Assembly: GCA_963638555.1 (NCBI GenBank)
Contig: CAVHQU010000001.1
Location: 169,309-233,308, forward strand
Reading direction: 5' to 3'
Source of the DNA: a bacterium
Lineage (GTDB): Bacteria > Bacillota_I > Bacilli_A > RFN20 > CAG-826
Length of the DNA: 64,000 nucleotides
A program made the position numbers and the translations under genes. Positions 25,784 through 63,330 of the stretch are shown piece after piece (within the stretch, counting starts at the first letter, position 1; the number at the start of each line of letters is the position of its first letter). A model generated the notes under the pieces. That model was given only the letters and a program-made list of their open reading frames with translations, made no database searches and was not told the DNA's origin.

Positions 25784-25849
25784 TAGTCTTTTAAAATGTA
25801 AGCGGTTTCTTTAATGTTTCCTCACAATCAAAATTTTGGAGGAAACACA

Positions 25850-27073
25850 ATGAAAAAGATTTTGACAATTAGTCTCCTAGCGACAATGGGCGCTTTGATG
25901 ACACTCACATCCTGTGGCGGAAGCAAGGAAAACACCGATTCATCAGCAAATGGTGCCTCTTCTGAAGAAACCGCTTCTTCTATCCAACCTGTAGTAGAAA
26001 GAAAATTGACTGGTTCATATTTAACTAGCGCTCAACTTTCTTATATGAATATGCGTCCAACATACAACTACTACACCACAAAATTCTCGTTCGAAGGCCT
26101 TGAAACATATTCAGATGGTTCTTACGTCTTCACGTTGGTTTCAATGTGCTATTCAGGTTTAAACTTACCAGAATCAGGTTCTGATGCCAGTGGATCCGAA
26201 AGAGAAAATTTTGTCAAAAAGTTCTATGGAACATATACATCTAAAACAAATGAATTAGATGATAGTATGTTAGACATCACTCTTGATATTCCTACACGTC
26301 TTACTAATGCATATAACTGTCAATATTTTGCTGATACAGCCGCCTGGACAGATGCAATGGCAACAGCCGTTTCAACAGATTCCTATGGTAACGTTTCAGA
26401 AACAAAATACACCGCTGAAACATATTTAGCGTCCCAAGCCTTCAATAAGACGACAGTTTCCGTTACAACATCTACCGCATCATTCGATTATTTCACTTTA
26501 AGAGAAGATGGCGCAGCTGATCCAAAAGTCACCGTCTCAACCGAAACATATGGTCTAACCGGTGCCTATCTTTCCCCATCAAGTTTAGCTTATAGCAATT
26601 TCCGCCCAACATATAACTACTACACCACAAGATTCGCGGAAGAGTACATCGAAACATATTCAGATGGAACATATCGCGCAGATATCATTTCTTCTATGTT
26701 CTCTGGATTAAACTTACCAGAAGAAGGAAATGATGCTAGTGGATCTGATCGTGCGAACTATATTCAAAGCTTCTATGGCAAATACGCATCCAAGACAAAT
26801 GAATTAGATGAAACCATGATTGATTTAACAATCAAATCACCAACGACAGTTAAATTAACATACGATGCTGCCTATTTCATTGATTCTGACAATTGGACAG
26901 ACGCAATGTCTAATGCAACCGCAACAACCGATAGAACAACTGGTGAGAAAACAATCAATTATAAAACTGGGGCAGAATATTTGAATGCAGTCAAATTCGA
27001 TGATCAAGAAATCTCTGTTACCACTTCAACAGCGTCATTTGATTTTATTAAATTAAGCGCTGAACTTAACTAA
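25850..27073 (+). CDS. Lipoprotein containing a tandem duplication of a ~170-aa domain
   Basis: Start moved to ATG 25850 (SD ggagg); the track ORF begins at 25814. Lipobox LMTLTSC. The repeats begin at nt 26006 and 26555 (LTGSYL..RPTYNYYTTKF..YSDGSY..SGLNLPE..DASGS..TNELD / LTGAYL..RPTYNYYTTRF..YSDGTY..). Confidence 0.75.
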   Translation: MKKILTISLLATMGALMTLTSCGGSKENTDSSANGASSEETASSIQPVVERKLTGSYLTSAQLSYMNMRPTYNYYTTKFSFEGLETYSDGSYVFTLVSMCYSGLNLPESGSDASGSERENFVKKFYGTYTSKTNELDDSMLDITLDIPTRLTNAYNCQYFADTAAWTDAMATAVSTDSYGNVSETKYTAETYLASQAFNKTTVSVTTSTASFDYFTLREDGAADPKVTVSTETYGLTGAYLSPSSLAYSNFRPTYNYYTTRFAEEYIETYSDGTYRADIISSMFSGLNLPEEGNDASGSDRANYIQSFYGKYASKTNELDETMIDLTIKSPTTVKLTYDAAYFIDSDNWTDAMSNATATTDRTTGEKTINYKTGAEYLNAVKFDDQEISVTTSTASFDFIKLSAELN

Positions 27074-43102: not shown

Positions 43103-45709
43103 ATGAAAAAACAAATATTAATTACCAGTGCGGCTATGCTTATGGCATTAGCTGCCACTGGTTGTAACGGAAACAATCAAAGTTCAGAAAGCGACGTTGC
43201 TTCGTCAGATGATTCTACGAGCAGCGTTGCTTCCTCCTCATCCGCTTCACCAATCATCGTTGATGATTTCTCTGAAGCATTAAGCAATACACGTTACTAC
43301 GCAATCACGAGCTCATCCGGCGAGAAAACATATTACACAGAAGTTTTTACTGATAACTTCTACTATAGTGGCACTAGCTCATCCGGATACATGATTCCCG
43401 AAGAAGATAGTGGATACATCCACCCAGTATCGGGCAATTACAGTGATGGCGAAGATGGTTCATATTCTTTAGCAATTAACGTTTATGGGCGTGTAGCTGA
43501 AGCCAAGCAATATTCAGTTATCAGAAGTTCTACATTCTTAGGTTTGGTCAATAATTACGTAAAAACTTTCGAAAAGGTAAGTGATACAAAATTCAAATCT
43601 ACTGATGAAACTCTTATTTCTGAAGTTGCATATTTCTTTGAATCCAAATTGCTTCGCTACGCCAATAACATCGTTTTTGATGTTGATGACTTAGGCAGAA
43701 TTTCTCATCTCTACATTAACGAAGACGATGAATCACTCATGGATTCAGCAATCTCTGAGGTCGAACGTACAGATGTCTACCTATATAACGACTGGGTAAA
43801 GAATGGCTCAATTATTGAAGATCGTATCCAAGACTACAAGAACTTAGATAGCGCTCTTCTTAACCCAAAGTCTCTTTACAATAACCAAATCGTCAAATTC
43901 AACGCAATAGTCACTGGTGTCGATGACAATGGTGATGTCTATGTTGCCCAAACAGATTCAACAGGCGTTAACATTGGCATGCGTATCGAAGGAGTCTCTA
44001 ACAAAAACTTCGAAGTCTATGACAATGTCGTAGTTGAAACCACAATTGCAACAAATAACAATGTTGTTTACGGTACGAATGGTGTTATTACATACGTCTC
44101 TGAAGGCAATTATATTCCTCAATTTTCTGAAGAGGGGATTGTTGATTACTATGGTGGAGGATACTATGCCTACTACTATTTCTCTTCTTCTACATACTAC
44201 GCTGATTCGATCTATACGACATATGCATATGTTGCTACATTGCCAGAATTGGTTTCCGGTAAGGATTTAGTCGTATCACTTGTCTTCCCTAATGTTTACA
44301 GCGCTACCGAGACTTATTATGCAAGTTTTGTCCTTCCTTCATATTTAAACGATGAAACAAGAACATTGGCATATAACACTCTTAAAGCAGCTGGTATCTA
44401 TGGCGAAGATGATGCATATGAATTATGTTTTGACTCAATCATCATGAGAAGAAACGCTTCAGTTAAAGGTTTCTCCCTTCAACTCCTCCCAAGTTCTTTA
44501 ATTTATAAGAAGCTTACGGCCGTTCAAAAGATTGAACAAATATGTGGCTTAGCAAACTTCCCGTTGCCAACAAGCGTCACTCCTTTATCATATAAATTTG
44601 GTAAAGGCACTGACTACAATCTTGAATCACAATATGGAATCACAACCAGCGATAACGTTAACGGTTTGTTCGTTGGCGAAACTGATATTTCAGAAGATGA
44701 CTACAATACATTTATCTCTAGCCTAGAGACAATAGGTGTCACCAAATATGATGAAATAGAGGATACGTATAGCTATCGTCACCTCATTTACACATATAAT
44801 GGCTACATCATTGATACGATGTTTGTTGCAGCCACTTGGATTGGGGCTTCAAACCAATTAAGTATCTGGATTTATAAATCCGATACCGCAAATATAGTTA
44901 GATGCCCAACCGTTCAAGAACGCATAAAGGAAAAAGCCCCATGGTTTGATTCTTCATCTTTCTTGAGATATGCAGATAGCTATGACGCAGATTATCACGT
45001 CTTTGAAATTAGTAATTACGCTAACGTTCAATATGACGAACCACTAATCGCCGTAACATTAGATCTCAACACAAATGTTGGCGAAGATTACAAAAAGACT
45101 CTTGTTCAGACGATGGGTTATAAGCAATACAAAGTTGATGGTAAATCCTATACCTATAAATCAAGAGGACAAGTCCATTACGTCTTTCAAAAAGATGAAG
45201 GCCAATTCGTTGATGTTGCTACATATCCAACAACCGATTATACATACACGGGTCACGCCAAATGGAATTACCGTGTTGAAATACTAATCTATCGTGGAGA
45301 TGCTCCAATCACTGTTCCAACCTATTCTGATTTGACTCCTCTATCAGATTTGTATGCGGCTAAGGATTCTTCTCTTGCATATGCCTCAGCATTACCAAGC
45401 GACGCTAAAGTCGAAGTATGGAAAGATATGTGGGAAGATGATCCATATTATGATCTTCTCAAATATGGCTATTGTCACCGTGATGAAGCGTTCGTATACA
45501 CATCAAATATTGATGAAGCATACGAATCAATCAAGACAGGCTTAGCAAACGCTGGATATAAAGAGTCCGAAACATATGAAGAATATGAAAACTGCACTCT
45601 TTATAGCAGGGTCTTCAAAGGTGAATATTATTACGTATTCGTCATGAAAACCACAAAAGGCTATGTACGCGTCATAAACGACTTAGGCGGCATGGATTTC
45701 TATAGTTAA
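43103..45709 (+). CDS. Large surface lipoprotein
   Basis: MKKQILITSAAMLMALAATGC lipobox followed by a Ser-rich tract. 868 aa, no domain I recognise. Confidence 0.7.
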   Translation: MKKQILITSAAMLMALAATGCNGNNQSSESDVASSDDSTSSVASSSSASPIIVDDFSEALSNTRYYAITSSSGEKTYYTEVFTDNFYYSGTSSSGYMIPEEDSGYIHPVSGNYSDGEDGSYSLAINVYGRVAEAKQYSVIRSSTFLGLVNNYVKTFEKVSDTKFKSTDETLISEVAYFFESKLLRYANNIVFDVDDLGRISHLYINEDDESLMDSAISEVERTDVYLYNDWVKNGSIIEDRIQDYKNLDSALLNPKSLYNNQIVKFNAIVTGVDDNGDVYVAQTDSTGVNIGMRIEGVSNKNFEVYDNVVVETTIATNNNVVYGTNGVITYVSEGNYIPQFSEEGIVDYYGGGYYAYYYFSSSTYYADSIYTTYAYVATLPELVSGKDLVVSLVFPNVYSATETYYASFVLPSYLNDETRTLAYNTLKAAGIYGEDDAYELCFDSIIMRRNASVKGFSLQLLPSSLIYKKLTAVQKIEQICGLANFPLPTSVTPLSYKFGKGTDYNLESQYGITTSDNVNGLFVGETDISEDDYNTFISSLETIGVTKYDEIEDTYSYRHLIYTYNGYIIDTMFVAATWIGASNQLSIWIYKSDTANIVRCPTVQERIKEKAPWFDSSSFLRYADSYDADYHVFEISNYANVQYDEPLIAVTLDLNTNVGEDYKKTLVQTMGYKQYKVDGKSYTYKSRGQVHYVFQKDEGQFVDVATYPTTDYTYTGHAKWNYRVEILIYRGDAPITVPTYSDLTPLSDLYAAKDSSLAYASALPSDAKVEVWKDMWEDDPYYDLLKYGYCHRDEAFVYTSNIDEAYESIKTGLANAGYKESETYEEYENCTLYSRVFKGEYYYVFVMKTTKGYVRVINDLGGMDFYS

Positions 45710-52093: not shown

Positions 52094-53389
52094 TTAATTT
52101 TTCAAACAACTGATAGGAACAACACAAACCCCATCTTCTCTTCTATAGCATGAACCATGACTCGTTAAAACCATTTTAAATTTTGGCGCCTCATGATTGC
52201 TAGCTACAACCCTTTTCTCAAATAATTTTAAAGAATTAGCTCCTTTTTCTATATTATCGGGGTCTGCCAATTTAATTTCTATTGCACCATATTTGCCATT
52301 TGGCAATTCAACAATGGCGTCTACTTCTTGCCCACTGCTGTCTCTATAGTGTTTAATCGTTGCATCTATAGACTCGGAATATACAGATAAATCTCTGATT
52401 GCAAAATCTTCGAAGAATAAGCCAAATGAATTTAAGTCATTCAGTAGATCGCTTGGATTTATCCCTAAACAAGCAGCCGCAATAGACGTATCAATGAAAT
52501 GATGAGTTGGAGCGTTTCTAACGGAAACAGAGCTTCTCAGATTAAGATTCCAGGCAGGCATATCATAGACAATAAACAAATCCTTCAAAACTTTAACATA
52601 AGTGTCAAACGTATCTTCATCTAGTTTTGATCTATTCCCAGATTCAATAATATCAGATATCATTTTCGTCTTTTTGGCTTGTGTAGATATATTTCTTGCA
52701 TATGATTTTAAAATTAAAGTCAACAGATCAATATTTTTACCTTTTAAAAATAGCGAAAAATCATCATTCTCATCTTCAATCGTGAATAAACCTTTATAAT
52801 AGTTTTTAGTGATACGTATCGCTTGTTCCGGATTGCTAACCTTGCTGGCCAAAGGCCATCCTCCCCTGCAAATTAGATTTGCAATATCGCTCAACGAAAT
52901 AGAATTGTCATAGTCAAATAAATTTTTAAATTCATAATCGTTCTCTTCAAAAAGAGACCTCAAAGAAACAATTCCAAGTGATTCTCCAGACTCATATAAA
53001 GTAAAAGGCTTGAGCGTCATTGAAACTATTCTTCCAGCGCCAGAATGTTGTATTTGTTGTGCACCGACTGGAGTTGTACTTCCAGTGATTATGTATTTTC
53101 CGAAAACATAATCATGGTCCAAATCGCTTTTTATGTAATTCCATATGTCAGGAACTTTTTGCCATTCATCAATCAAATGCGGATACTCGCCAACCAGTGC
53201 GCATCTTGGGTCAGCTTTCGCTAATCCAATGGCATTGGCCGTCTTCAATTCGGTAATCGATTTAGCGTATTGGGTACACATTGTTGATTTTCCGCAAAAT
53301 TTTGGCCCTGTCACCAAAACACAGCCCATTGAACTCAAATTTAATTTCAACGCATCTTCTGCAAGTCTTTTTATATATCTATCTGCCAT
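52094..53389 (-). CDS. AAA_14/DUF4143-type ATPase (COG1373-like)
   Basis: P-loop VTGPKFCGKST near the N-terminus. 431-aa architecture typical of DUF4143 ATP-binding proteins (from memory). SD gaggtg; TATAAT at 53409-53414 on the minus strand. Confidence 0.65.
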   Translation of the reverse strand: MADRYIKRLAEDALKLNLSSMGCVLVTGPKFCGKSTMCTQYAKSITELKTANAIGLAKADPRCALVGEYPHLIDEWQKVPDIWNYIKSDLDHDYVFGKYIITGSTTPVGAQQIQHSGAGRIVSMTLKPFTLYESGESLGIVSLRSLFEENDYEFKNLFDYDNSISLSDIANLICRGGWPLASKVSNPEQAIRITKNYYKGLFTIEDENDDFSLFLKGKNIDLLTLILKSYARNISTQAKKTKMISDIIESGNRSKLDEDTFDTYVKVLKDLFIVYDMPAWNLNLRSSVSVRNAPTHHFIDTSIAAACLGINPSDLLNDLNSFGLFFEDFAIRDLSVYSESIDATIKHYRDSSGQEVDAIVELPNGKYGAIEIKLADPDNIEKGANSLKLFEKRVVASNHEAPKFKMVLTSHGSCYRREDGVCVVPISCLKN

Positions 53390-53440
53390 ATAAGCACCTC
53401 ACATAAAAATTATATTCCTATCTCACTGATAAACAATATT

Positions 53441-53509
53441 ATTTTCGGTGTTTTGAAACTTTTATTTTCGGTGTTTTGAAACTTTTATTTTCGGTGTTTT
53501 GAAACTTTT
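53441..53509. repeat. Three perfect head-to-tail copies of a 23-bp unit ATTTTCGGTGTTTTGAAACTTTT
   Basis: Copies at 53441-53463, 53464-53486 and 53487-53509. Each holds a small palindrome GTTT-TG-AAAC. The array abuts the -35 region of the DUF4143 ATPase promoter. Confidence 0.9.
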
Positions 53510-53515
53510 AAATCA

Positions 53516-53547
53516 TTAAAAAAGAAAAAAGCTCGTTGACCGAGCTT
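53516..53547 (-). terminator. Rho-independent terminator of the 59.2-53.5 kb operon
   Basis: Stem aagctcg/cgagctt with a 5-nt loop. On the minus strand ttttttctttttt follows it. Confidence 0.7.
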
Positions 53548-53548
53548 A

Positions 53549-54250
53549 TCATTTCTTGAAATCTTCGTTTACTTTTTTCTCTACTTCATTGCAAATAACT
53601 TGTAATGAGCAGGAATGGCAATCCATTTTTACCTTATTCATCAAATGATCTAACGCTTTAGTAATGTTTTCACATTTCGTTACAATTGCGCTTAGCTCAT
53701 CGTATTTGTATTCATCAAAAGTAACAAAGATTGTCTTAACATTTTTAACAAAAGGGAGTTCTTTGTATTTGGAAATGAAATAATTTCCAAGCTTAGAAAA
53801 ATCTAAATGATCTTTTTTTAAAGAATTTTTAGAAACCAGAAGGCTTTCTTTTTTATTGAAAGCGGATTCTCTAACCATAACACCATCATAAGCAAAATGA
53901 TATTTCACATAGTCAAACTTACGAATGCTGTTATAAAGGACGTTTCCAGAGCCCATAAGGTCGTTATTAACGCTTGCAACGGTAATCCTCGCATAATTCC
54001 CATCGCCGTTAATTGAATTCAAATCTTGACCTATTAGAAGAATCTCATCATCGAATTCAGAATCAGTTAATAAATCGAGAACAACCCCTTTAAATTGGCT
54101 TGCACCTAATTCAAAGGCTTTTTCATTGCTGAAAATTAGTTGATTGTTATTCTCAATAAATGTTTGATTTTGATTGAGAGTTAGTCTTTTTGCTTCGTAT
54201 TTATTGTTGATTTCATTAACGTCATTAACTAAATCATCAAAAATAAACAT
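53549..54250 (-). CDS. Acetyl-CoA-synthase (CdhC/AcsB) middle-domain-like protein ending in a Cys cluster
   Basis: 233 aa. Colinear by eye with the central part of Moorella AcsB as I recall it: AFEL; D.EILLIGQDL vs DGKIEVIGPDI; LLVSKNS vs LRVSKDA; VKTIFVTFDE vs VQVTIFTDE. It ends in CHSCSLQVIC, where ACS has C-x2-C-x8-C. Confidence 0.55.
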   Translation of the reverse strand: MFIFDDLVNDVNEINNKYEAKRLTLNQNQTFIENNNQLIFSNEKAFELGASQFKGVVLDLLTDSEFDDEILLIGQDLNSINGDGNYARITVASVNNDLMGSGNVLYNSIRKFDYVKYHFAYDGVMVRESAFNKKESLLVSKNSLKKDHLDFSKLGNYFISKYKELPFVKNVKTIFVTFDEYKYDELSAIVTKCENITKALDHLMNKVKMDCHSCSLQVICNEVEKKVNEDFKK

Positions 54251-54252
54251 AA

Positions 54253-54471
54253 CTAGATTTTACGGTTTCTTTTCTTCTTGTCGTAGATCTTTGTTAAAAG
54301 AGGCTCCAAAGAAGAAGTTAATTTCATATCTAAGTTGAAGAAATAGATAATGAACAATAAGCCAAAGAGAGCAATGAATGCGCCAATGACCGTGCAAAGG
54401 ATGCTAATCCACAAAGCCCAGTTCAGATATGGGAAAAGTGTCCAGCTTAAGACAATTAAAGCGGTACCCAT
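54253..54471 (-). CDS. 72-aa two-TM peptide
   Basis: Two hydrophobic helices and a basic tail (KKKRNRKI). Gaps of 2 nt to both neighbouring genes. Confidence 0.5.
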   Translation of the reverse strand: MGTALIVLSWTLFPYLNWALWISILCTVIGAFIALFGLLFIIYFFNLDMKLTSSLEPLLTKIYDKKKRNRKI

Positions 54472-54473
54472 AT

Positions 54474-55280
54474 TTATCTTCCTCCTGCTAAGCCTTTTTG
54501 ACGGGCATATTCAGCAGCACCTAAAGCGCCCATTAATTGAGGATCGATAGGGAGGTTGACAACCTTTAAGTGTAAAACCTTTTCAATCGCGTCTTTTAAG
54601 CCATCGTTTTTAGCACAGCCACCAGTTAAGGTAATGTTATCAACTGCTCCAGCTTTCTTTGCCATGACGAAGCATCTTTTTGCAACTGAGAATTCAATGC
54701 CTGCAGCAATTTCGTCCATTGGTTTTCCTTCACCAACTAATGAGATAACTTCGGATTCAGCAAAAACCGTGCATTGAGCAGTGATAGGAATAATATTCTT
54801 TGCTTTCAAAGAAAGTTTTGAGAAAGTGTCTAAATCCATCTCGAAGGCTCTAGACATCGCTTCAAAGAATCTTCCTGTGCCAGCAGCGCATTTATCATTC
54901 ATAGCGAAATTAAGGACTGTTCCATCCGTATCAACGGCAATGCCTTTAACGTCTTGCCCACCAATATCAATAATTGCTTTGACGTTTGGATCAGTAACGT
55001 GGACACCCATCGCGTGGCAGGAAATCTCAGAAATATTTTCATCCGCAAAAGGAACTTTGTTTCTGCCATATCCTGTGCCAACCAAGTAAGATAAGTCTTT
55101 AGGGGAATTTAATCCTTCGACTTGAACAATTGCTTGATCTAAAGCATCTTGAGCGCTTAAAACGGAATTAATTCTGCTTCTTAAGGTAACATTTGCTACC
55201 ATCTTACCAGTTTCGTCGACAATAACGCATTTTGTATAGGTACTGCCGGAATCACAACCACCAAAATATTTCATATTCAT
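54474..55280 (-). CDS. ATP-dependent activase of 2-hydroxyacyl-CoA dehydratase / benzoyl-CoA reductase type (BcrAD_BadFG, HgdC-like)
   Basis: GGCDSGSTYTKCVI, DIGGQD, DKCAAGTGRFFE and QCTVFAESEVISL, including the cluster-bridging Cys. Confidence 0.85.
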   Translation of the reverse strand: MNMKYFGGCDSGSTYTKCVIVDETGKMVANVTLRSRINSVLSAQDALDQAIVQVEGLNSPKDLSYLVGTGYGRNKVPFADENISEISCHAMGVHVTDPNVKAIIDIGGQDVKGIAVDTDGTVLNFAMNDKCAAGTGRFFEAMSRAFEMDLDTFSKLSLKAKNIIPITAQCTVFAESEVISLVGEGKPMDEIAAGIEFSVAKRCFVMAKKAGAVDNITLTGGCAKNDGLKDAIEKVLHLKVVNLPIDPQLMGALGAAEYARQKGLAGGR

Positions 55281-55288
55281 TTATCTCC

Positions 55289-56836
55289 TTACCATGATTT
55301 TGCATCATCAATAACTTCTAAGCTTGGATCAACAGGTTCTTCTCTCATGACAGAGCGCATATATCTGTTAACTTGATCCCTAACGCCTTGTTTAGAAATG
55401 ACACGTGGGTCCATTAAATCGTGATCGACCCAAACGAGTTTGATACCATGTTCTCTAGCACGTTGTTCAAACATACCATGCATGCCATCGAGAGCTTTAC
55501 AAGAAATGTGTTCCCACAGAATAACCATATCGGCCTTGTAGTAATCGCAGAACTTCCAAAGATCATCAAGTAAGACTTCATAGCCACCATGGGTTCTGTT
55601 TCTCATAATCATCTCTTCATAAAGTTTAGCGATATCGTATATTGCTTGTTCAGGATCATCTTCTGAAATCTCGTCAAAGTAGCAGAGAGAAAGCATATCG
55701 ACTAATGGAACGATTCCCCAGCAGTTTTGAAGCCATGGGAGGAAGTCCGTATAGAATTGAGATTGAACGCCCCAGATGATTGCTCTATGACGCATCTCTT
55801 TGCAAACCATTGCTTTTCTCTTATAAGCTTTTTCAGCAAGCTTTGTAATCTTTCTATCAGCCTTAACGAAGTCATCGGAGCGACCGGCAACAGCCATGTA
55901 TGTTGTTTCAGAATATAAAGCTAAGTTAGCACCAAAGACTTGTGGGTAATCCGTTCTAGACATTTCCATCCAGGATTTACGAAGCCTTGTTTCTTCGTTG
56001 AAGCGTTTAGCACATTTGAAATAGTTATCCCAATTCCATTTTTCACCAGTTTTTTCTTCAATGAATTTGATAGCGTTTCTGATTTCTTGTGCAGCATATT
56101 CTTGAACGCCTTCTTCAGTATGTCTAAGAGGTGCAGCAATTTGGAAAGTAGGAACACCAAATTCTTCATATTTTTTACCCATGATGCCATTTCCCATCAA
56201 AGATCCATCACATGTTGTGTTACATTGAACGGCGCATGCGCCATAAATTGGCATATCTTCGTCAACTGCGCAGCCAGCTTCAGCGGCAGGCATTGGGCAA
56301 ACGTCGCCAGGAATACCCATTTCCTGAAGAACATCAAGATAGTGAGTGACAGCCATTGGATTTAATAAGACAGAGACATATACGGCTGCAGTTTCCCAAC
56401 TAACAGCATATAAGTTAGGGAAACCACACATGACGTGGAACATTTCGTTTTCATCAAGAACAACGCATTTCTTAGAGAATTTTTCATTATTTCCACATCT
56501 TTTATCTGCTTTGAATACTCTCGTTAAAAGTTGAGCAATATCTAGAGCAACCAAATCATATTCAGTATGAGCGATTCTAAGTGCTTCCTTTCTCAAACCC
56601 GTCGTATGTTTATCAATCATCATCGGGACAGCTAGATAGTTAAGCATCCATCTGTATCTAAAGAAACCTTTTAAATTATTTGGCTTAACGATGAATTTAG
56701 CCAACATCCACATGATTTTAAGCCAGCATCTGAAGTCATAGAAAGTGTCTACGAAGCCTCTCCACTCTCTTCTCTTTCTGACTTTTTTTCCGTTATAAAG
56801 CTTTCCTAAGGCTTCGGAACCTACTTTTGCTCCCAT
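55289..56836 (-). CDS. 2-hydroxyacyl-CoA dehydratase family (HGD-D) large subunit with N-terminal extension
   Basis: 515 aa with a Cys-rich segment (CPMPAAEAGCAVDEDMPIYGACAVQCNTTCDGS). Its start shares TAATG with the preceding subunit's stop. Confidence 0.75.
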   Translation of the reverse strand: MGAKVGSEALGKLYNGKKVRKRREWRGFVDTFYDFRCWLKIMWMLAKFIVKPNNLKGFFRYRWMLNYLAVPMMIDKHTTGLRKEALRIAHTEYDLVALDIAQLLTRVFKADKRCGNNEKFSKKCVVLDENEMFHVMCGFPNLYAVSWETAAVYVSVLLNPMAVTHYLDVLQEMGIPGDVCPMPAAEAGCAVDEDMPIYGACAVQCNTTCDGSLMGNGIMGKKYEEFGVPTFQIAAPLRHTEEGVQEYAAQEIRNAIKFIEEKTGEKWNWDNYFKCAKRFNEETRLRKSWMEMSRTDYPQVFGANLALYSETTYMAVAGRSDDFVKADRKITKLAEKAYKRKAMVCKEMRHRAIIWGVQSQFYTDFLPWLQNCWGIVPLVDMLSLCYFDEISEDDPEQAIYDIAKLYEEMIMRNRTHGGYEVLLDDLWKFCDYYKADMVILWEHISCKALDGMHGMFEQRAREHGIKLVWVDHDLMDPRVISKQGVRDQVNRYMRSVMREEPVDPSLEVIDDAKSW

Positions 56837-58026
56837 TATTTTTTGCCTCCTTGAATCTTCTTAATCTCAATGCTTTCAACGAAAGCTTGAACTCTGGTTC
56901 TAATTTGTCCAGATGAACCAACAGCATATGGTCTATCAATAGAGAGAACAGGGTAGTTGTAATCGTCTCTAAGCATATGGGTGCCAGTCATTCTTTCGTA
57001 TGCCCATGGGTCACAGAATTTCATTTGCTCATAAATAATTCCATCGGCATGGTAATCTTTAGCAATTTGATTAACATATTCTTTTCTTTGTCTGAATTTT
57101 GGAAGATTCATATGGCGTGGGCACATGCATGAATGCATGTATTGGGCACATATTTGGGTTAGTACATCTTCATTGTCGTTAAGGATGATTTCTTGTCTTC
57201 CTGGAAGAGAACCGAAACAATATCTGTCAGCAACAACAAGGGCGCCAGATTCTTCAATGAGTTTAATCATATCGACATCATCAACTTCTGATCCGACGAC
57301 AGCAACCTTTGCACGGTATTTCTTTTTTGCATCTGGAACGCGTGTTTTTACTTCTTCAAGAGTCTCCTCAAGTTTATCGATTAATAAGTAATGAGGGCAG
57401 ACGTATGTGCACATGGTGATGATATGGAACTCATATCCAGTGATACGTGGGTTCTCTTCTTTTCTAAATTCACCTAGTTCGGTTATGATGCGGCAAATCT
57501 TGTTATGCTCCTTAACTGCTTCTCTTAAAGCATCATCAGAAACGTCTATTCCAAAATGTTCATGCAAAGAGTTTAAAATCTTCTTGCGGCATTCAGAAAC
57601 GTATAAGTTCAAGCCGTTATCATCGTCCTTCATAGGAACTTCTAGATATTCGTAGAAGAAATTATCTGCTGGCATTGTTTTGAGTAATTCCATGTTTTCA
57701 ACACAGCGATTGATCATTGAACAGCCATCAGGCGTAAAAAGGCAATCAAGATATTGATATCCGCCTTCGATAGCTCTTTCTAATAACGCTCTCGTATATT
57801 CACATAAAAAGGAGGTCATATAGTATGTCCCCATCTCAAGAGAGCCGGTACGTGGAGCTCTTAAACGTGAGGAGAAGCATCCTTTGAGGTTAAGAAGAAC
57901 TTCAGGAATTTGCGAGCATGTCGTGCCAAGGCACTTAAGCCCTTCTTCTTTTGCTTGTCTTACTAGATCATTATTCGCGTTATCTAGTAATTGCTCGAAA
58001 TAATACAAATGTTTTAAATCTTTCAT
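56836..58026 (-). CDS. 2-hydroxyacyl-CoA dehydratase family (HGD-D) subunit
   Basis: 396 aa. Family-typical Cys positions (CLGTTCSQIPE; DGCSMINRC; MKFCDPWAYE). Confidence 0.75.
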   Translation of the reverse strand: MKDLKHLYYFEQLLDNANNDLVRQAKEEGLKCLGTTCSQIPEVLLNLKGCFSSRLRAPRTGSLEMGTYYMTSFLCEYTRALLERAIEGGYQYLDCLFTPDGCSMINRCVENMELLKTMPADNFFYEYLEVPMKDDDNGLNLYVSECRKKILNSLHEHFGIDVSDDALREAVKEHNKICRIITELGEFRKEENPRITGYEFHIITMCTYVCPHYLLIDKLEETLEEVKTRVPDAKKKYRAKVAVVGSEVDDVDMIKLIEESGALVVADRYCFGSLPGRQEIILNDNEDVLTQICAQYMHSCMCPRHMNLPKFRQRKEYVNQIAKDYHADGIIYEQMKFCDPWAYERMTGTHMLRDDYNYPVLSIDRPYAVGSSGQIRTRVQAFVESIEIKKIQGGKK

Positions 58027-58036
58027 TTTGACCTCC

Positions 58037-58804
58037 TTATAATATTCCTAATTTTTCTAATGCAATTTTTGTGTTCTTAACGATATTTGAATCTTCGTTA
58101 AGAGAGAATACTGAATTGCCCTCAACATCCGAGAGCATCATTTCTTTGTCATCTGGAATTACGCTCAATAAGTTTAACGATTCGAGATTAAGTTTATTGA
58201 TATCTACTGTTTCGCTAACACGATTAAGAATCAATCCATCAGTTTCGTACATGACTAATTCTTTAGCAACCTTCTTTATCGTTTTTGTTACTTCAATGCC
58301 TTTCTTAGACGCATCGGAAACAAGAACTAGATGGGTGACCTTCTCCATTACTCTGCGATTAACTTGCTCAATACCCGCTTCACCATCAATAACCACATAA
58401 TCAAAATTATTGGCAAGAAGGCTTATTACTTCTTTGAGATAAGCGTTAACCTTGCAATAACATCCACTCGCTTCAGGACGACCTATAGCGAGGAAGGAGA
58501 TATTGTCTATTTCAACTAAAGCATCAAAGATTTGGTATTTTGCTTCGGAGAGAATTTCCAGAGCTGCTTTTGAGTCTCCATTCTCCGCATGTTCAATGAA
58601 TAACTTTCTTATATCATCTACCGTTGAAGATGAATTAACGCCTAACGCTGTCGCTAATCCAATGGCAGGATCAGCATCAATGGCTAAAATTTTCTTATCT
58701 GGATATTTTTCATGGAGCAATCTAACAGACAAGGCAGAAATTGAAGTCTTACCGACTCCACCTTTTCCACAAAAGGCTAATATAACTGGCTTACTCATAA
58801 TCAT
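58037..58804 (-). CDS. CooC/AcsF-like MinD-superfamily nickel-insertion ATPase
   Basis: Deviant Walker A CGKGGVGKTS, AIDADP and the Cys-x-Cys motif (SGCYCKVN) characteristic of CooC. The start could instead be ATG 58798. Confidence 0.7.
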   Translation of the reverse strand: MIMSKPVILAFCGKGGVGKTSISALSVRLLHEKYPDKKILAIDADPAIGLATALGVNSSSTVDDIRKLFIEHAENGDSKAALEILSEAKYQIFDALVEIDNISFLAIGRPEASGCYCKVNAYLKEVISLLANNFDYVVIDGEAGIEQVNRRVMEKVTHLVLVSDASKKGIEVTKTIKKVAKELVMYETDGLILNRVSETVDINKLNLESLNLLSVIPDDKEMMLSDVEGNSVFSLNEDSNIVKNTKIALEKLGIL

Positions 58805-58995
58805 TTCTCATCTACATGGACAATAACGTATCCATCCACGAGGTTAGCTTTGGAGAGAATACCTTTTATTTCCACCTTTCTTTCCATCAAATCGGTGAAG
58901 ATTAATGAGTTTTGCTTCATTTCAATACTCATAACATTCTTCATCAAGATGTTTTTATCATCTATTTTGTCTTTATAAATCGTTGATAAACACAT
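58801..58995 (-). CDS. CooT-family small nickel-binding protein
   Basis: 64 aa starting Met-Cys (MCLSTIY...). Beta-rich, with the size and pattern of CooT. Its stop overlaps the CooC-like start (ATGA). Confidence 0.6.
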   Translation of the reverse strand: MCLSTIYKDKIDDKNILMKNVMSIEMKQNSLIFTDLMERKVEIKGILSKANLVDGYVIVHVDEK

Positions 58996-59005
58996 ATATG
59001 GTTCC

Positions 59006-59212
59006 TTATTTCTTTAATTCTTTCAAAGCCAATGAAAGAGATTTGTTGCCTTCCTCGAAAGAATTAATCGCATCTTCAACTTCTGCGTAAGCATCAGAAT
59101 TAACATCTTTTAAAGAATTGGCCAAATCTTGCAATTCTTCATTGTGATGTTCATTATGATTAATCATGTAATTAATGAGAGCAATGAGTTCTTCTTTATT
59201 GTTCGTTTCCAT
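59006..59212 (-). CDS. His-rich helical small protein (putative metal-binding)
   Basis: 68 aa: LINYMINHNEHHNEELQDLANSL...AINSFEEGNKSL. Resembles small metal-associated helical proteins of Firmicutes (from memory). Confidence 0.45.
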   Translation of the reverse strand: METNNKEELIALINYMINHNEHHNEELQDLANSLKDVNSDAYAEVEDAINSFEEGNKSLSLALKELKK

Positions 59213-59418: not shown

Positions 59419-61194
59419 ATGAAAAAATGTTTAGGAATATTATTGTCAGGATTGTTTGTCCTTGGAGCGGTTTCTTGTTCAAATGAAACATCATCAAGCA
59501 GTCTTTCAAGTGAAGAATTGAGTCAAAAGAGCGTGAGCGTGTATCTAAATTCGCTTGATAAAACAGCTTCTGTAAATCTTCATTTCTATGATAAGGATGA
59601 ACAAATTCCATATATTGAGATGGATGATGCATTCAGGATCCGTAAAGCGTTATTTGATTCAGGAACAACTTATGAAACGCCAAATAAATCAACATACGAA
59701 ATAGCTAGAGACGGATCTCAATATACCGTCACGATTAACAAACGTGGAACGGCTACATTCGATATTGAAAATCAAACTCTAACAATTCCAAACTTGGGTT
59801 TAGTCCAAGCGTACTCATATAACGACACTCCATATGATATTTTATGCATGGATTCATCCTCTTCTTCGATTCATTATGTAACTCATCAGAAAAATGGCGA
59901 CAGTCTTAGAGCCTATGCATATATGGGCAATGAAATGGTTATTTCCCTTAAAGAATACAGCATACCTGTATATGAAAAAGATAATAAAGCGTATATTCCA
60001 TTAGATCTCTTCAACAACTTCTTTTTAAGCTATACGTATAACAATTTCGTCTATAACGGAGATGCTATATTTACATTCACCGGTCTTGATAATCCATCTG
60101 AAGAATATTTAAATAATTTCTATTTTTGTTCAAATGCTAAAAAGAAAAGAAGCAAAGAATTAGCTGAGTTCTCATACAATTCATTAATGCTCAACCTTAA
60201 TTACCAATACGGACTAAAAGAAAGACATTCATTTGGCGATTTTAGAAAAGAATTTAAAGATTTAGGATTAGAGGATTCTTTAAAATCCACAGACGAAAAA
60301 GAATACATGTCTGGCATATTTAAGTTTATTTACAACGCATTTGGCGATGGCCATTGTTCATTTCAAAGAAGAAGTCCATACTCTACAGCAAACATTTACG
60401 ATGAAGTAAGAGCATCAGCTAAGTCTTACGTCAATATTGGTTATGTTGAATTGATAAAATCATTAACTGAAAATGGAACATTCCGTTCTTCTGCCGCTGA
60501 AACAAATCCAGATTATGGAAAATGCTATTACGAAGACGGAGATACAGCCTATGTTAGATTTGATAAATTTTCTATGTTAAGCGAAATTCCAGATTATTAT
60601 CAAAACGCACCGACAGGTGATGAAACAGATCTATTTGGTGTAATTATATATGCAAATAAAAAGATTAAAGAAAACTCTGCAATTAAAAATGTTGTAGTTG
60701 ATATGGCCACAAACAGAGGTGGAGAAGAACCTTCATTAATATTTGCTCTCGGATGGTTATTAGGCAATGATGCAAGAGTTTCTCTTAAAAATCCTGTTAC
60801 TAACTGCGCATCAACCATTTATTACAATGCTGATGTAAATCTTGACGGGAAATATGATGTCACGAACGATACTCTTGAAGGATATAACAAATTCATTCTT
60901 ACATCTCATTCATCCTTCTCCTGTGGTAACGCATTCCCTTGTTTTGCAAAAGCTAGTGAAAAAGTAAAAATCATTGGTCAAACATCTGGCGGAGGAGCGT
61001 GTCAAGTTTTCCCTCTTGTGACAACGGATGGCACAGTAATCAATATTTCAGGCGGTGGAGTCCTATGTACAGAAAAGAACTCTCATTACGAGGACATTGA
61101 TGATGGCGCCACACCTGACTTCACTATAACCGAAACAGCGAACATATTTGATCGCGCATACACAACAAAGGTCGTTCATTCATTAGTTCTTTAA
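59419..61194 (+). CDS. Lipoprotein with S41 peptidase-like domain (paralog of 10666-12447)
   Basis: Lipobox LGAVSC. Contains FGDGHCS, VVVDMATNRGGEEPSL and IGQTSGGGACQ. SD caggagg. Confidence 0.6.
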   Translation: MKKCLGILLSGLFVLGAVSCSNETSSSSLSSEELSQKSVSVYLNSLDKTASVNLHFYDKDEQIPYIEMDDAFRIRKALFDSGTTYETPNKSTYEIARDGSQYTVTINKRGTATFDIENQTLTIPNLGLVQAYSYNDTPYDILCMDSSSSSIHYVTHQKNGDSLRAYAYMGNEMVISLKEYSIPVYEKDNKAYIPLDLFNNFFLSYTYNNFVYNGDAIFTFTGLDNPSEEYLNNFYFCSNAKKKRSKELAEFSYNSLMLNLNYQYGLKERHSFGDFRKEFKDLGLEDSLKSTDEKEYMSGIFKFIYNAFGDGHCSFQRRSPYSTANIYDEVRASAKSYVNIGYVELIKSLTENGTFRSSAAETNPDYGKCYYEDGDTAYVRFDKFSMLSEIPDYYQNAPTGDETDLFGVIIYANKKIKENSAIKNVVVDMATNRGGEEPSLIFALGWLLGNDARVSLKNPVTNCASTIYYNADVNLDGKYDVTNDTLEGYNKFILTSHSSFSCGNAFPCFAKASEKVKIIGQTSGGGACQVFPLVTTDGTVINISGGGVLCTEKNSHYEDIDDGATPDFTITETANIFDRAYTTKVVHSLVL

Positions 61195-61246: not shown

Positions 61247-61735
61247 TTATTCGAGGAGTCCTTTAATTGTTGTGCCTTTATAGGCAAATGTATACGAAGT
61301 TGAACTTGAAAAATCAACTGTGAATGCGACTAAAACATTTGGATGAGTTATAACTGTCGCATTTTCATCTATTGCATCAATTGTTGTTGTATCTGATCTC
61401 TTAGTTATATAAACCTTTTTGCCTTCAGTTCCAGCAGTGAATTGCCATCCATCAACAATTCCGTACGATGATGTTGTTTTGCCATCAATGGTAACCGTGA
61501 AATCATCTTTAGAAACTGTAACAGCTTTGCCAGTTCTATTTGCGACGCTAAATGTAGTTACGTAAATTGGTGTACTATCAGTTTCGCTAGCATTCATTTT
61601 TTGACAAAATTCACTAGATGTTGAATCGCTCTTTGAGAAAACTATATTTCCTGAATTTCCACCCATGCCATTACAGGAGGCTAACATTATCGGTAATCCA
61701 AGTAATCCGATCATCATTTTGATTGTTTTTTTCAT
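61247..61735 (-). CDS. Small lipoprotein
   Basis: MKKTIKMMIGLLGLPIMLASC lipobox. 162 aa, beta-rich. Confidence 0.65.
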   Translation of the reverse strand: MKKTIKMMIGLLGLPIMLASCNGMGGNSGNIVFSKSDSTSSEFCQKMNASETDSTPIYVTTFSVANRTGKAVTVSKDDFTVTIDGKTTSSYGIVDGWQFTAGTEGKKVYITKRSDTTTIDAIDENATVITHPNVLVAFTVDFSSSTSYTFAYKGTTIKGLLE

Positions 61736-61962: not shown

Positions 61963-63330
61963 ATGAAAAAATCTAATCTTATTTTATTAACATTACTTAG
62001 CACCACATTATTCTCATGCGGAGGAAACGATTCGTTAGATTCCACTGAATCCTCGTCAGCACAAGATGAAATCGTTGATGTTCTTCCTGATGGATATACA
62101 AATTCCGTCAAGGATTATTTGAAGGCATTAAAGAGCATCCACAACTACACAATCTCTGAAACGGTTTCTTCCACTGCAGCTACGTATGAAAACTATATTG
62201 TCGCCAAATATGATACAAAATCCTACTACTATGATTTCGGTTCAAATTCCTATGGATATATTCAATCCGACGATGGCGTGTATGCAGTTAACATCAAAAA
62301 TGACTCTTTAATTGGCGGAGAAATTTATCATGATGATGAAGGGAACGCTTATAAAGATTTATGGGGTCATGATTTCTTCAAAAGCTTTGCTTCATTAGAT
62401 GAGGAACAATTAGAAACAATTCCCGATGGAACAGTTGACGTATCTCTCAAAGGAAAGAAAAACAAACTAGCAATTCTTTCTATATTAGGGCTTGATTCGT
62501 CTTATTATGCAGGCATCGCATCAATGAAAGCGTCAATAAGTTCCAGCAACGCTTTAGGAATTAGCATCGAGATTGAAGATTCATCTGGTGCCACAATCAC
62601 AGTCGATTCAGTCGTATATGCTTTATTAACCACCAAAAACACGGAAATAGATGAATTCCTTGCCAATGGTGGAACATATTACGTTATCGACTCAGATTTC
62701 GCAAAAGCAAGAACTCTTATGAAGGGTAATAACTATACGCATAACTATTACTACAATAAGAAAATCGTTGGTGTTGAATATTTCAACGAGAACTACTACT
62801 TCGTCAACTGGGATTCATCCTATGTTGCTGAAACAGGCCAAATATTAGTTAATCAAGGCCTTATTGGCATCGATCATAAAAAAGATAGCAATGGCAATGC
62901 CTTAAATGGCGCATATCTTGTCACATTGAATAATGGTCAATTTAGCATAAGCCTCTCTTTCTATTACAATGAAGATCCAAACATTCCTACCGTATATCAT
63001 TACCCATCACTTATGTATATGTGGGACAATCCTGAATTCTTTGAAATGGATGAAACCCCATCAGATTTAGACGCATACTTCACAACCGATGACACCATCA
63101 TGATGAATAACTTCATTGAAAACTTCTCAATGTCTAGTCAAGTTGCTGACGTTAATGTCAGATCTCTCTCCATTGGTTGGAAAGATATTGAAGATGATTC
63201 AAACACCTCAAGAATTGTTCGTTTCTGCCTCTCGACAAGTGGAGGAGACGTCACTTATGATTTCTGCAATTTTGGAACGACAAATATCCCTGCATTCGAT
63301 TCGTTCTTAGCAGGTTTATCAGACCAATAA
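61963..63330 (+). CDS. Lipoprotein
   Basis: MKKSNLILLTLLSTTLFSC lipobox followed by a short Ser-rich linker. 455 aa. Confidence 0.65.
   Translation: MKKSNLILLTLLSTTLFSCGGNDSLDSTESSSAQDEIVDVLPDGYTNSVKDYLKALKSIHNYTISETVSSTAATYENYIVAKYDTKSYYYDFGSNSYGYIQSDDGVYAVNIKNDSLIGGEIYHDDEGNAYKDLWGHDFFKSFASLDEEQLETIPDGTVDVSLKGKKNKLAILSILGLDSSYYAGIASMKASISSSNALGISIEIEDSSGATITVDSVVYALLTTKNTEIDEFLANGGTYYVIDSDFAKARTLMKGNNYTHNYYYNKKIVGVEYFNENYYFVNWDSSYVAETGQILVNQGLIGIDHKKDSNGNALNGAYLVTLNNGQFSISLSFYYNEDPNIPTVYHYPSLMYMWDNPEFFEMDETPSDLDAYFTTDDTIMMNNFIENFSMSSQVADVNVRSLSIGWKDIEDDSNTSRIVRFCLSTSGGDVTYDFCNFGTTNIPAFDSFLAGLSDQ

Follow-up and report, generated by a model that had tools for sequence, protein, structure and literature searches.

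What might a protein related to only the middle domain of acetyl-CoA synthase (ACS) be doing at the end of an operon that encodes two HGD-D subunits, an activase, and predicted nickel chaperones? The question is raised by one gene in the 64,000-nucleotide stretch of bacterial DNA analysed here (referred to as the window; GC content, 35.9%; no tRNA genes were found in it). Its product, referred to below as mini-ACS, was approached through profile and structure comparisons, conservation across its family, and gene neighbourhoods in related loci.

Relationship of mini-ACS to the ACS middle domain

The gene and its principal segments are as follows.

53549..54250, minus strand: mini-ACS, an open reading frame from ATG to TGA (233 aa), a stand-alone protein homologous to the middle (A2) domain of ACS/CdhC and to a short opening stretch of the A-cluster domain
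53711..54142, minus strand: residues 37-180, the ACS-aligned segment (region of Pfam CdhC, PF03598), from HMM alignment to ACS chains in the PDB
53591..53620, minus strand: codons of C211-x2-C214-x5-C220 and of the preceding conserved D210, from conservation; colinear with the Cys506/509/518 region of ACS

As a single query, the window protein matched nothing in Pfam or NCBIfam and none of the ACS chains in the PDB, so the similarity to ACS is remote and visible only through profiles or structure. The only significant PDB matches of the family profile were ACS/CdhC chains (E = 3e-4), and alignment of the mini-ACS family with ACS by hhalign gave a probability of 94.5% (E = 8e-8). The CdhC profile PF03598 was matched by 23 of 37 homologues (best E-value 1.2e-8, several above the gathering score), with positions 14-152 of its 155 covered. 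HMM alignment places residues 37-179 of mini-ACS on residues 331-471 of Moorella ACS, pairing AFELG with VEMGG, DDEILLIGQDL with DGKIEVIGPDI, LLVSK with LRVSK, and VKNVKTIFVTFDE with VDRVQVTIFTDE. The AF2 model has a confident fold but low confidence for residues 207-233, and by structure comparison this fold is that of ACS A2: all 20 Foldseek matches at E <= 0.001 were ACS, the next E-value being 0.23. Mini-ACS is a true but truncated relative of ACS, and its family descends from the ACS/CdhC middle domain.

This large, widespread family consists of uncharacterised, stand-alone proteins of ~235 aa (about 230-250) that form 584 clusters at 50% identity, with one family member on at least 1000 contigs. 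In most over-long members, the added length comes from an insertion, read-through, or a wrongly called start; only P0218 is a genuine fusion, joined to a C-terminal 2x[4Fe-4S] ferredoxin domain, and this fusion was seen in two assemblies and adjoins CooC. Another relative adjoins a polyferredoxin gene. Family members are unnamed, labelled "hypothetical," or automatically named "CO dehydrogenase/acetyl-CoA synthase beta subunit," and the last of these labels could falsely imply Wood-Ljungdahl capacity in metagenome annotation. Whatever the function proves to be, the family merits its own name and model.

The truncation relative to ACS, together with the lack of CODH, CoFeSP, and true ACS genes in the window (the last judged by tblastn with ACS fragments), could be taken to mean that this open reading frame is a functionless remnant of an ACS gene. 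That explanation is all but excluded and can be regarded as refuted because the conservation data contradict loss of function: the 584 clusters keep the same length, motifs are invariant, synteny is conserved across at least 40 loci, and the predicted fold is confident. A single tblastn match to an ACS fragment, at 27171-27284, lies antisense to a glycosidase gene and was rejected as spurious.

The A2 fold itself suggests a further reading, in which mini-ACS would be a CoA- or acyl-CoA-binding subunit, either substrate-presenting or regulatory, with a role inherited from ACS and with its three Cys residues forming a structural Zn site only. In its favour, acetyl-CoA binds mainly to A2 in ACS (bioRxiv 10.1101/2024.08.05.606187; PMC12289521), the contact residues being Mt Arg405, His408, Gly421, and Trp427 (bioRxiv 10.1101/2024.08.05.606187); HAD/BCR enzymes use CoA thioesters; and distant cassettes carry genes for a CoA ligase (L070) or type III CoA transferases (L076). 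Against it, Ser/Leu stands opposite the adenine-stacking Mt W427 and a hydrophobic residue opposite His408, the family-invariant R127, S129, and E135 fall in an insertion relative to ACS, no CoA transferase or ligase gene is present in the window operon, and the linkage to CooC described below is left unexplained. R110 and K111 lie at or beside the Arg-Arg of ACS, in an HMM alignment too remote for residue-exact placing. Because the mapped CoA-binding residues of ACS gave no clear conservation, this reading, which is very unlikely, was not adopted.

The cysteine motif and the truncated A-cluster segment

Of the A-cluster-binding segment, mini-ACS retains just the beginning. Among 201 family members, C211 is present in 195, C214 in 193, C220 in 196, and D210 in 182, and the C-x2-C-x5-C spacing is fixed in 193. 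In the ACS comparison sequences, which at this point were fragments spanning the A2/A3 junction and not full-length proteins, the colinear region reads FYSC-x2-C-x8-C-x9-C ... SCGC, with SCGC ~90 residues past the first Cys; in mini-ACS it is cut short, and the tail beyond the third Cys is 8-26 residues long across the family. Neither a conserved fourth Cys nor a longer C-terminus was found in the family, and no counterpart of Cys528, the fourth of the ACS residues Cys506, 509, 518, and 528 (Moorella numbering), is present. The CGC motif, which in ACS binds the proximal and distal nickel, occurs nowhere in the 233 aa, and the C-terminal A3 domain (Pfam ACS_CODH_B_C, PF19436) was matched neither by the window protein nor by any of the 37 homologues. 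An A-cluster-like site cannot form from the mini-ACS chain alone, without Cys-Gly-Cys and without the fourth cubane Cys.

The exact correspondence of the three Cys residues is less clear. The hhalign alignment of mini-ACS with ACS ends at residue 209, just ahead of the motif, and two registers are available: one equates C211/C214/C220 with Cys506/509/518 at the cost of a 3-residue deletion, and the other, obtained with MAFFT, equates C211 with Cys509 and C220 with Cys518 without gaps. Residue-level equivalence to Cys506/509/518 is therefore unresolved.

These results bear on most of what the earlier note, made from the sequence alone, had claimed for this protein. Colinearity with the ACS middle domain in the blocks it named was borne out by the HMM alignments, and so was the absence of the downstream C-G-C nickel site. 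The two outcomes that it had named as refuting, a lack of profile or structural similarity to ACS and a lack of Cys conservation, did not materialize. Its statement that the protein stops right after CHSCSLQVIC failed as worded: the window protein continues for 13 residues past C220 and ends shortly beyond the first Cys motif. Of the four Cys residues proposed to be invariant, the three of C-x2-C-x5-C are nearly so, and the fourth, C193 of TKCEN, is not; found in just 34/201 members (17%), it was rejected as a fourth ligand.

An eight-gene operon and its counterparts in other loci

Mini-ACS is the last of eight tightly packed genes on the minus strand, listed here from the 3' end.

53529..53547, minus strand: intrinsic-terminator-like hairpin, then TTTTTCTTTTT (hairpin and T-run directly past the mini-ACS stop codon)
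54253..54471, minus strand: hydrophobic (membrane) protein of 72 aa, ending 2 nt ahead of mini-ACS, with which it stays paired in 38/42 loci
54474..55280, minus strand: acyl-CoA dehydratase-type activase (BcrAD_BadFG ATPase; PF01869, 2e-56; TIGR00241, 5e-64)
55289..56836, minus strand: alpha-like HGD-D subunit, 515 aa (PF06050, 8.5e-39; sole PDB relative DCCP, 6e-8)
56836..58026, minus strand: beta-like HGD-D subunit, 396 aa (PF06050, 1.8e-87; BzdN, 5e-22; DCCP, 2e-18; HadC, 4e-18)
58037..58804, minus strand: CooC-type P-loop ATPase (best PDB match CooC1, 3kje, 5e-15, CYC aligned to CYC)
58801..58995, minus strand: CooT nickel chaperone, 64 aa, beginning Met-Cys (PF10133, 2e-14, 54 bits)
59006..59212, minus strand: open reading frame for a helical His-motif protein (HNEHH), 68 aa, related to DUF8180 through its phmmer-based orthologue in locus L003, a gene annotated with PF26551

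The earlier note had placed mini-ACS last in an "HGD/activase operon." The position was confirmed, the terminator-like hairpin following the gene, but the description was incomplete, having overlooked the three nickel-handling genes at the 5' end. All three retain their diagnostic residues: the Cys-x-Cys metal motif of CooC (GCYC) is found in 53/53 orthologues, Cys2 of CooT in 49/49, and the HxxxH of the DUF8180-like protein, which has no direct Pfam match in the window, in 48/48. CooC/AcsF-type ATPases are known to insert Ni into the C-cluster of CODH and the A-cluster of ACS. CODH and corrinoid Fe-S protein genes are absent from the operon and from the cassettes of 67 loci. The two HGD-D subunits fall outside the named subfamilies, all scores against DCCP (NF040772), HadB/C, BzdN/O, and BcrB/C being far under the curated cut-offs; for NF040772 (double_cubane), the beta-like subunit scores 143 bits and the other 41 bits, compared to a cut-off of 350. 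The alpha-like subunit has an invariant C201-x3-C205-x3-C209 and about 10 invariant His residues, and the beta-like subunit has 13 near-invariant Cys residues.

In the 42 genome loci with enough flanking sequence, CooC is the most constant partner of mini-ACS (41/42), followed by the activase (39/42) and HGD-D (38/42). Modules consisting of DUF8180, CooT, CooC, and mini-ACS genes without HGD or activase were seen in four loci (L043, L047, L055, and L059, the last with unrelated flanks), and in L053 the CooT-CooC-mini-ACS trio has moved as a single block. Carriers include a cultured bacterium, Lachnospiraceae bacterium AC2012 (locus L064). Very distant members with different gene orders still adjoin CooC (L068, L070, L074, and L076). 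L003 and L041 contain no HGD genes, and in both the activase gene overlaps that of mini-ACS. Near one distant member (L072), there is no CooC or HGD gene. Loci without CooT and DUF8180 (L001, L050, L062, and L074) have the nickel chaperone HypA ahead of CooC; in these loci, IsrA-like and HypA genes lie directly ahead of a CooC-HGD-activase-mini-ACS cassette. This gene neighbourhood constitutes a functional link, but it does not indicate the direction of delivery between the products.

With CooC, CooT, and a His-rich DUF8180-like protein encoded in the operon, the likely role of mini-ACS shifts from that of a generic electron-transfer subunit to that of a CooC-linked, probably nickel-related Fe-S protein. 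The older idea of an electron-transfer or scaffold subunit, put forward in the earlier note, is unproven and has not been ruled out; its two halves can be weighed separately. As an electron carrier, mini-ACS would be an ordinary Fe-S subunit feeding the activase or HGD-D, and the nickel chaperones would serve a novel Ni cluster in HGD-D. This is possible: there are three invariant Cys residues in mini-ACS, one relative is fused to a 2x[4Fe-4S] ferredoxin domain and another adjoins a polyferredoxin gene, and the many invariant Cys and His residues of HGD-D could build an unusual metal site. Against it stand the CooC-CooT-mini-ACS modules without HGD-D and the closer linkage to CooC than to HGD (41/42 versus 38/42); the ACS A2 fold, which is not that of a ferredoxin (the window protein lacks both the CxxCxxCxxxCP motif and the ferredoxin fold, having C-x2-C-x5-C only); and a conserved domain of 180 residues, more than a simple carrier needs.

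As a scaffold, mini-ACS would be a maturation adaptor and no part of the finished enzyme, docking CooC, and for a time a Ni or Fe-S unit, onto HGD-D here and onto IsrA-like oxidoreductases elsewhere. The tight linkage to CooC, CooT, or HypA and not to one enzyme supports this reading, as do the two types of associated enzyme, HGD-D and the IsrA-like flavo-Fe-S oxidoreductases (L046, L055, L067, and L074), the reported linkage of IsrA homologues to HypA/HypB with a suspected need for Ni (PMC10134865), and the flexibility of the Cys tail in the AF2 model. The adaptor is nonetheless unlikely. CooC and AcsF are known to act on their targets directly, without an ACS-like adaptor; most IsrA homologues have HypA and HypB, with no mini-ACS neighbour reported (PMC10134865); and the ferredoxin fusion is more in keeping with a functioning redox protein than with a chaperone. 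No IsrA-like gene was found in the window operon.

Proposed role and known systems

The explanation that best fits these data, although it falls just short of being probable, is that mini-ACS is an Fe-S subunit, likely associated with nickel, that is matured by CooC in the way that ACS is matured by AcsF. This role is an untested inference, and nickel is likewise inferred, from the neighbouring genes only, in the absence of any metal data. According to this proposal, the three Cys residues would hold an Fe-S cluster, most likely [4Fe-4S], whose fourth ligand would not be Cys and could come from D210 or from a partner protein, and the CooC ATPase would have mini-ACS as its client or would work with it directly. 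Ni(II) would reach CooC from CooT and the His-rich protein and, at the cost of ATP, be placed by CooC at or beside the mini-ACS cluster, in the way that the CooC-type ATPase AcsF puts nickel into the cubane-bridged ACS site. Once loaded, mini-ACS would serve as a third metallo-subunit of an HGD/BCR/DCCP-like heterodimer that is reduced by the ATP-driven activase, with the 72-aa protein possibly anchoring the complex to the membrane. The substrate could plausibly be an acyl-CoA, since genes for a CoA ligase or type III CoA transferases occur in remotely related cassettes. A redox role is also supported by the ferredoxin fusion, by the relative that adjoins a polyferredoxin gene, and by the overlap of the activase and mini-ACS genes in L003 and L041. 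Several observations weigh against the proposal: the mini-ACS chain lacks Cys-Gly-Cys and the fourth cubane Cys, the register of its Cys motif is ambiguous and this part of the AF2 model has low confidence, L072 has no CooC nearby, and the Cys/His-rich HGD-D subunits could be the real nickel target.

A bolder version of the same proposal, which can be entertained as no more than a possibility, would give the ATP-activated HGD/BCR/double-cubane radical-enzyme superfamily a hitherto unrecognised branch that depends on nickel. Mini-ACS would carry a stripped-down, A-cluster-like Ni-[4Fe-4S] site with ligands completed by a partner subunit, loaded by CooC, CooT, and the CooJ-like His protein and reduced by the activase. 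If true, this would amount to a Ni-Fe-S cofactor and enzyme of a new type, common among the uncultured Bacillota of the gut, and could be a minimal ACS-type module that still exists today.

Few classes of nickel enzymes are known, and the A-cluster of ACS is among the most unusual metal sites in biology. In gut bacteria, mini-ACS and its partners might conceivably form a new enzyme system that depends on nickel, a suggestion that again rests on neighbouring genes only. If nickel is involved, such a system in gut anaerobes would also offer a minimal, tractable model for the assembly of a cubane-bridged nickel site by CooC/AcsF-type ATPases; if the nickel goes to HGD-D, the radical dehydratase/reductase superfamily would gain a new cofactor. 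No description of the mini-ACS/HGD/CooC arrangement was found in the full-text literature searched, in agreement with the earlier note, which knew of none, and that search also yielded no report of an ACS-like subunit or of CooC/CooT with HGD/BCR/DCCP systems. A literature mention of "CdhC-like" proteins concerns forms of ACS without the prismane domain, not the mini-ACS family.

Among known systems, ACS (AcsB/CdhC) shares with mini-ACS the A2 sequence blocks, a Cys cluster at a colinear position past the long helix leaving A2, and an adjoining gene for a CooC-type ATPase (AcsF/CooC in the case of ACS). Unlike ACS, mini-ACS has no N-terminal A1 and almost no A3 domain, lacks equivalents of Cys528 and of the Cys595-Gly596-Cys597 nickel site, does not conserve the CoA-contacting Trp and His, and is encoded with HGD/BCR-type genes, without CODH or corrinoid protein genes nearby. 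With the CooC/CooT/CooJ system of Rhodospirillum rubrum CODH and with AcsF systems, the window operon has in common a CooC with CxC and a CooT with Cys2, and a small helical His-motif protein occupies the place of R. rubrum CooJ. It differs from both in that the client is neither CODH nor full ACS, and from the R. rubrum system in that the His-rich protein is a DUF8180 member and not a demonstrated homologue of CooJ; in some mini-ACS relatives, HypA takes the place of CooT and DUF8180. Two HGD-D subunits with a BcrAD_BadFG activase are also the hallmark of HgdCAB/HadIBC, BzdNOPQ, and DCCP/DCCP-R, and in alignments of the beta-like subunit with BzdN, DCCP, and HadC, the Cys positions of these proteins are matched too; the window subunits, unlike those of these systems, carry extra invariant Cys and His residues. 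Finally, the described isr operon of Acetobacterium wieringae, which encodes the putative isoprene reductase IsrA with HypA/HypB, differs from the window operon in having no mini-ACS, CooC, or HGD-D, but resembles it in placing nickel chaperones beside a non-classical Fe-S redox enzyme (PMC10134865).

An eight-gene operon headed by metallochaperone genes

The ACS-like protein encoded at 53549-54250 of the window and its family are referred to here as mini-ACS, the reference being acetyl-CoA synthase (ACS; AcsB/CdhC) with its middle (A2) and C-terminal (A3) domains. The mini-ACS gene, only 2 nt from the preceding gene, is assigned as the last of its operon because a hairpin and T-run follow directly. 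The operon comprises eight genes with intergenic gaps of -4 to 10 nt, and promoter-like hexamers lie upstream of 59212. The extent proposed in the earlier note was incomplete, with two small minus-strand genes upstream of the P-loop ATPase gene overlooked. The located features are as follows.

59006-59212, minus strand: 68-aa helical protein with an HNEHH motif, DUF8180-like (orthologous to PF26551 [DUF8180]-annotated genes in related loci)
58801-58995, minus strand: CooT nickel chaperone (PF10133, 54 bits), beginning Met-Cys
58037-58804, minus strand: CooC-type P-loop ATPase (best PDB match CooC1, 3kje, 5e-15)
56836-58026, minus strand: 396-aa 2-hydroxyacyl-CoA dehydratase-type (HGD-D) subunit, beta-like
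55289-56836, minus strand: 515-aa HGD-D subunit, alpha-like
53549-54250, minus strand: mini-ACS ORF, 233 aa
53547-53529: hairpin and T-run, directly 3' of mini-ACS
52094-53389, minus strand: 431-aa ATPase-like ORF, the next gene past the operon terminator

In the alignment, the GCYC of the ATPase falls on the CYC that binds metal in CooC1, and the DUF8180-like His-motif protein, CooT, and CooC form a CooC/CooT/CooJ-like trio heading the operon. After CooC come, in order, the 396-aa and 515-aa HGD-D subunits, a BcrAD_BadFG activase, a 72-aa hydrophobic protein, and mini-ACS. The GC content of the mini-ACS gene is 30.6%, that of the operon 37.4%, and that of the window 35.9%.

A perfect 23-bp tandem repeat, TTATTTTCGGTGTTTTGAAACTT (53439-53510; 3.1 copies, 100% identical), lies in the gap between the operon terminator and the ATPase-like ORF, which starts at 53389. 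Given its position 50-120 bp upstream of that gene, the repeat may represent an operator or iteron-like element. The 64-kb window contains no detected tRNA genes and encodes many large predicted lipoproteins (43103-45709, 25814-27073, 59419-61194, 61247-61735, and 61963-63330), whose signal peptides end in a Cys lipobox and lead into linkers rich in Ser/Asn. Their abundance is compatible with a wall-less or Mollicutes-like/uncultured Bacilli lifestyle.

Mini-ACS derives from the ACS middle domain

Searched alone, the protein encoded in the window had no match among Pfam and NCBIfam models, nor to any ACS chain of the PDB. A word-index search returned 80 homologues. When profile searching was made exhaustive, 584 cluster representatives (50% identity) passed E <= 1e-3 and 364 passed E <= 1e-10; almost all are 230-250 aa long and match the profile end to end. 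That the family is homologous to the ACS middle domain is secure on the following evidence. Pfam CdhC (PF03598), whose current model covers that domain in 155 positions, was matched by 23 of 37 aligned members over profile positions of about 14-152 (best E value, 1.2e-8; several above the gathering score). In the PDB, the family profile had significant matches only to archaeal CdhC and bacterial ACS, with family positions 37-179 aligned to Moorella ACS 331-471 through the sequence blocks listed in the earlier note. Alignment of the family to ACS fragments with hhalign gave a probability of 94.5% (E value, 8e-8; positions 37-209). Finally, when the AlphaFold2 model (pLDDT, 88.5; pTM, 0.83; residues 1-206 confident, 207-233 weak) was compared with the PDB in Foldseek, all 20 matches with E <= 1e-3 were ACS or CdhC, the next having an E value of 0.23. 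The earlier observation of an ACS-like protein is thus confirmed, and its interpretation as a truncated form is supported by profile and structural similarity.

A role as CoA-binding subunit is considered very unlikely; it is weakened in that the remote alignment of the family profile to ACS shows no clear conservation of the ACS CoA contacts (Arg383, His386, Gly399, and Trp405 in Clostridium autoethanogenum numbering [bioRxiv 10.1101/2024.08.05.606187]; Arg405, His408, Gly421, and Trp427 in Moorella).

ACS fragments across the A2/A3 junction read VDRVQVTIFT-(36-aa helix)-C-x2-C-x8-C-x9-CG...SCGC; the window protein reads VKNVKTIFVT-(33-aa helix)-C211-x2-C214-x5-C220, and the chain ends 13 residues later. 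This makes the motif colinear with the leading A-cluster cysteines of ACS, without a counterpart of the fourth cubane ligand or of the Cys-Gly-Cys nickel site. The exact register of the motif is ambiguous: C211, C214, and C220 could correspond to the Moorella cubane ligands Cys506, Cys509, and Cys518, which needs a 3-residue deletion, or, as in the MAFFT alignment, C211 to Cys509 and C220 to Cys518 without gaps, since both pairs are 8 residues apart. The hhalign alignment ends before the motif.

Among 201 full-length members, C211 is found in 195, C214 in 193, and C220 in 196, with the C-x2-C-x5-C spacing kept in 193; an Asp immediately precedes the motif in 182 (Glu in some). The earlier note had asked whether a fourth Cys, in TKCEN, is also invariant; the three motif cysteines held, but this one failed (34/201), and the alignment of the 201 members has no further Cys-rich column. 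Mini-ACS is an ACS-A2-derived protein with three invariant cysteines under strong purifying selection, and the conservation data rule out the alternative that it is a dead ACS remnant.

Conserved gene neighborhoods

Scanning one genome per species for the pattern yielded 62 loci; in these and five earlier ones, stop-to-stop ORFs were matched to the proteins of the window with phmmer. The identical eight-gene order was found in 40 loci. In the 42 loci with >= 5.3 kb of upstream sequence, CooC was encoded in 41, CooT and the activase in 39 each, both HGD-D subunits in 38, and HypA in 2. The hallmark residues are invariant: CooC CxC in 53/53, CooT Cys2 in 49/49, and DUF8180 HxxxH in 48/48.

Four loci (L043, L047, L055, and L059) carry DUF8180-CooT-CooC-mini-ACS without HGD-D or activase genes, flanked in L059 by unrelated sugar and transport genes. 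Two (L003 and L041) add only the activase, whose gene overlaps that of mini-ACS, and in L053 CooT-CooC-mini-ACS is shifted as a block to the 3' end. Far more distant members hold to the theme in other orders: mini-ACS-CooC-HGD-D-HGD-D-activase with two type III CoA transferases (L076); two HGD-D, two activases, mini-ACS, CoA ligase, and CooC (L070); HypB, IsrA-like, HypA, CooC, activase, mini-ACS, and HGD-D (L074); and activase, a small ORF, mini-ACS, polyferredoxin, and aldehyde oxidoreductase (L078). In two independent assemblies, a family member (P0218; L068 235-1161 and L069 216-1142) is naturally fused to a C-terminal 2x[4Fe-4S] ferredoxin domain, and a CooC-like gene comes next. In one lineage (L072), both CooC and HGD-D are missing from the vicinity. 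The synteny, conserved across several gene orders, establishes a functional link of mini-ACS, primarily with a CooC-type ATPase and a nickel chaperone and secondarily with an ATP-activated enzyme of the HGD, benzoyl-CoA reductase (BCR), or double-cubane cluster protein (DCCP) type.

Directly upstream of the CooC-HGD-activase-mini-ACS cassette in L001 (317-3502), L050, and L062, the places of DUF8180 and CooT are taken by HypA and a flavo-Fe-S oxidoreductase resembling IsrA, a putative isoprene reductase; both also lie directly upstream in L074 (2350-6275, with HypB); two putative nickel-dependent modules may be travelling together. Contigs carrying 65-74%-identical cassettes are labelled Sodaliphilus, Alistipes, Faecalibacterium, Bacteroides uniformis, and Parasutterella (L007, L009, L010, L013, L025, and others). 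Such scattered labels for copies of one low-GC cassette suggest mis-binned or mislabelled MAGs, not true cross-phylum spread.

Proposed function and comparison with known systems

The functional picture in the earlier note, a cluster-carrying electron-transfer or scaffold subunit, needs revision to take in the nickel-chaperone genes. We infer that the Cys motif of mini-ACS would bind an Fe-S cluster; that CooC, by analogy, would act on it the way AcsF acts on ACS; that nickel would take part, since CooT and HypA are nickel chaperones; and that mini-ACS would then serve as a metallo-subunit of the HGD-D enzyme. This joint reading is untested; we consider it slightly less likely than not, and more likely than any one rival.

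The HGD-D pair is distant from every named subfamily (143 and 41 bits with NF040772 [DCCP], whose cut-off is 350), its nearest solved relatives being BzdN, DCCP, and HadC. The beta-like subunit has 13 near-invariant Cys; the alpha-like subunit has an invariant C201-x3-C205-x3-C209, about ten invariant His, and about 75 N-terminal residues that, by eye, form a hydrophobic extension. Both subunits stand out for their number of invariant metal-ligand residues. It remains possible that nickel goes to these Cys/His-rich subunits and that mini-ACS is a plain electron-transfer subunit; that it is a maturation adaptor or scaffold seems unlikely. An interesting, untested possibility is a new Ni-Fe-S enzyme system.

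Mini-ACS is not an ACS: of six defining features it lacks four, having no fourth cubane Cys, no Cys-Gly-Cys site, no A3 domain, and no CODH/CoFeSP context. In common with ACS it has the A2 fold, the location of its first Cys motif, and a neighboring gene of the CooC type. Members are named "hypothetical protein" in the databases, one being named "CO dehydrogenase/acetyl-coA synthase beta subunit." Viewed as a unit, the operon falls within the HGD/BCR/DCCP superfamily but outside every named subfamily. In a full-text literature search, no description of this arrangement was found, and no superfamily member was reported to have an ACS-like subunit or to be accompanied by CooC/CooT. Nickel-chaperone genes beside a non-classical redox enzyme have their closest precedent in the putative isoprene reductase operon (PMC10134865); IsrA-like genes adjoin some versions of the cassette.
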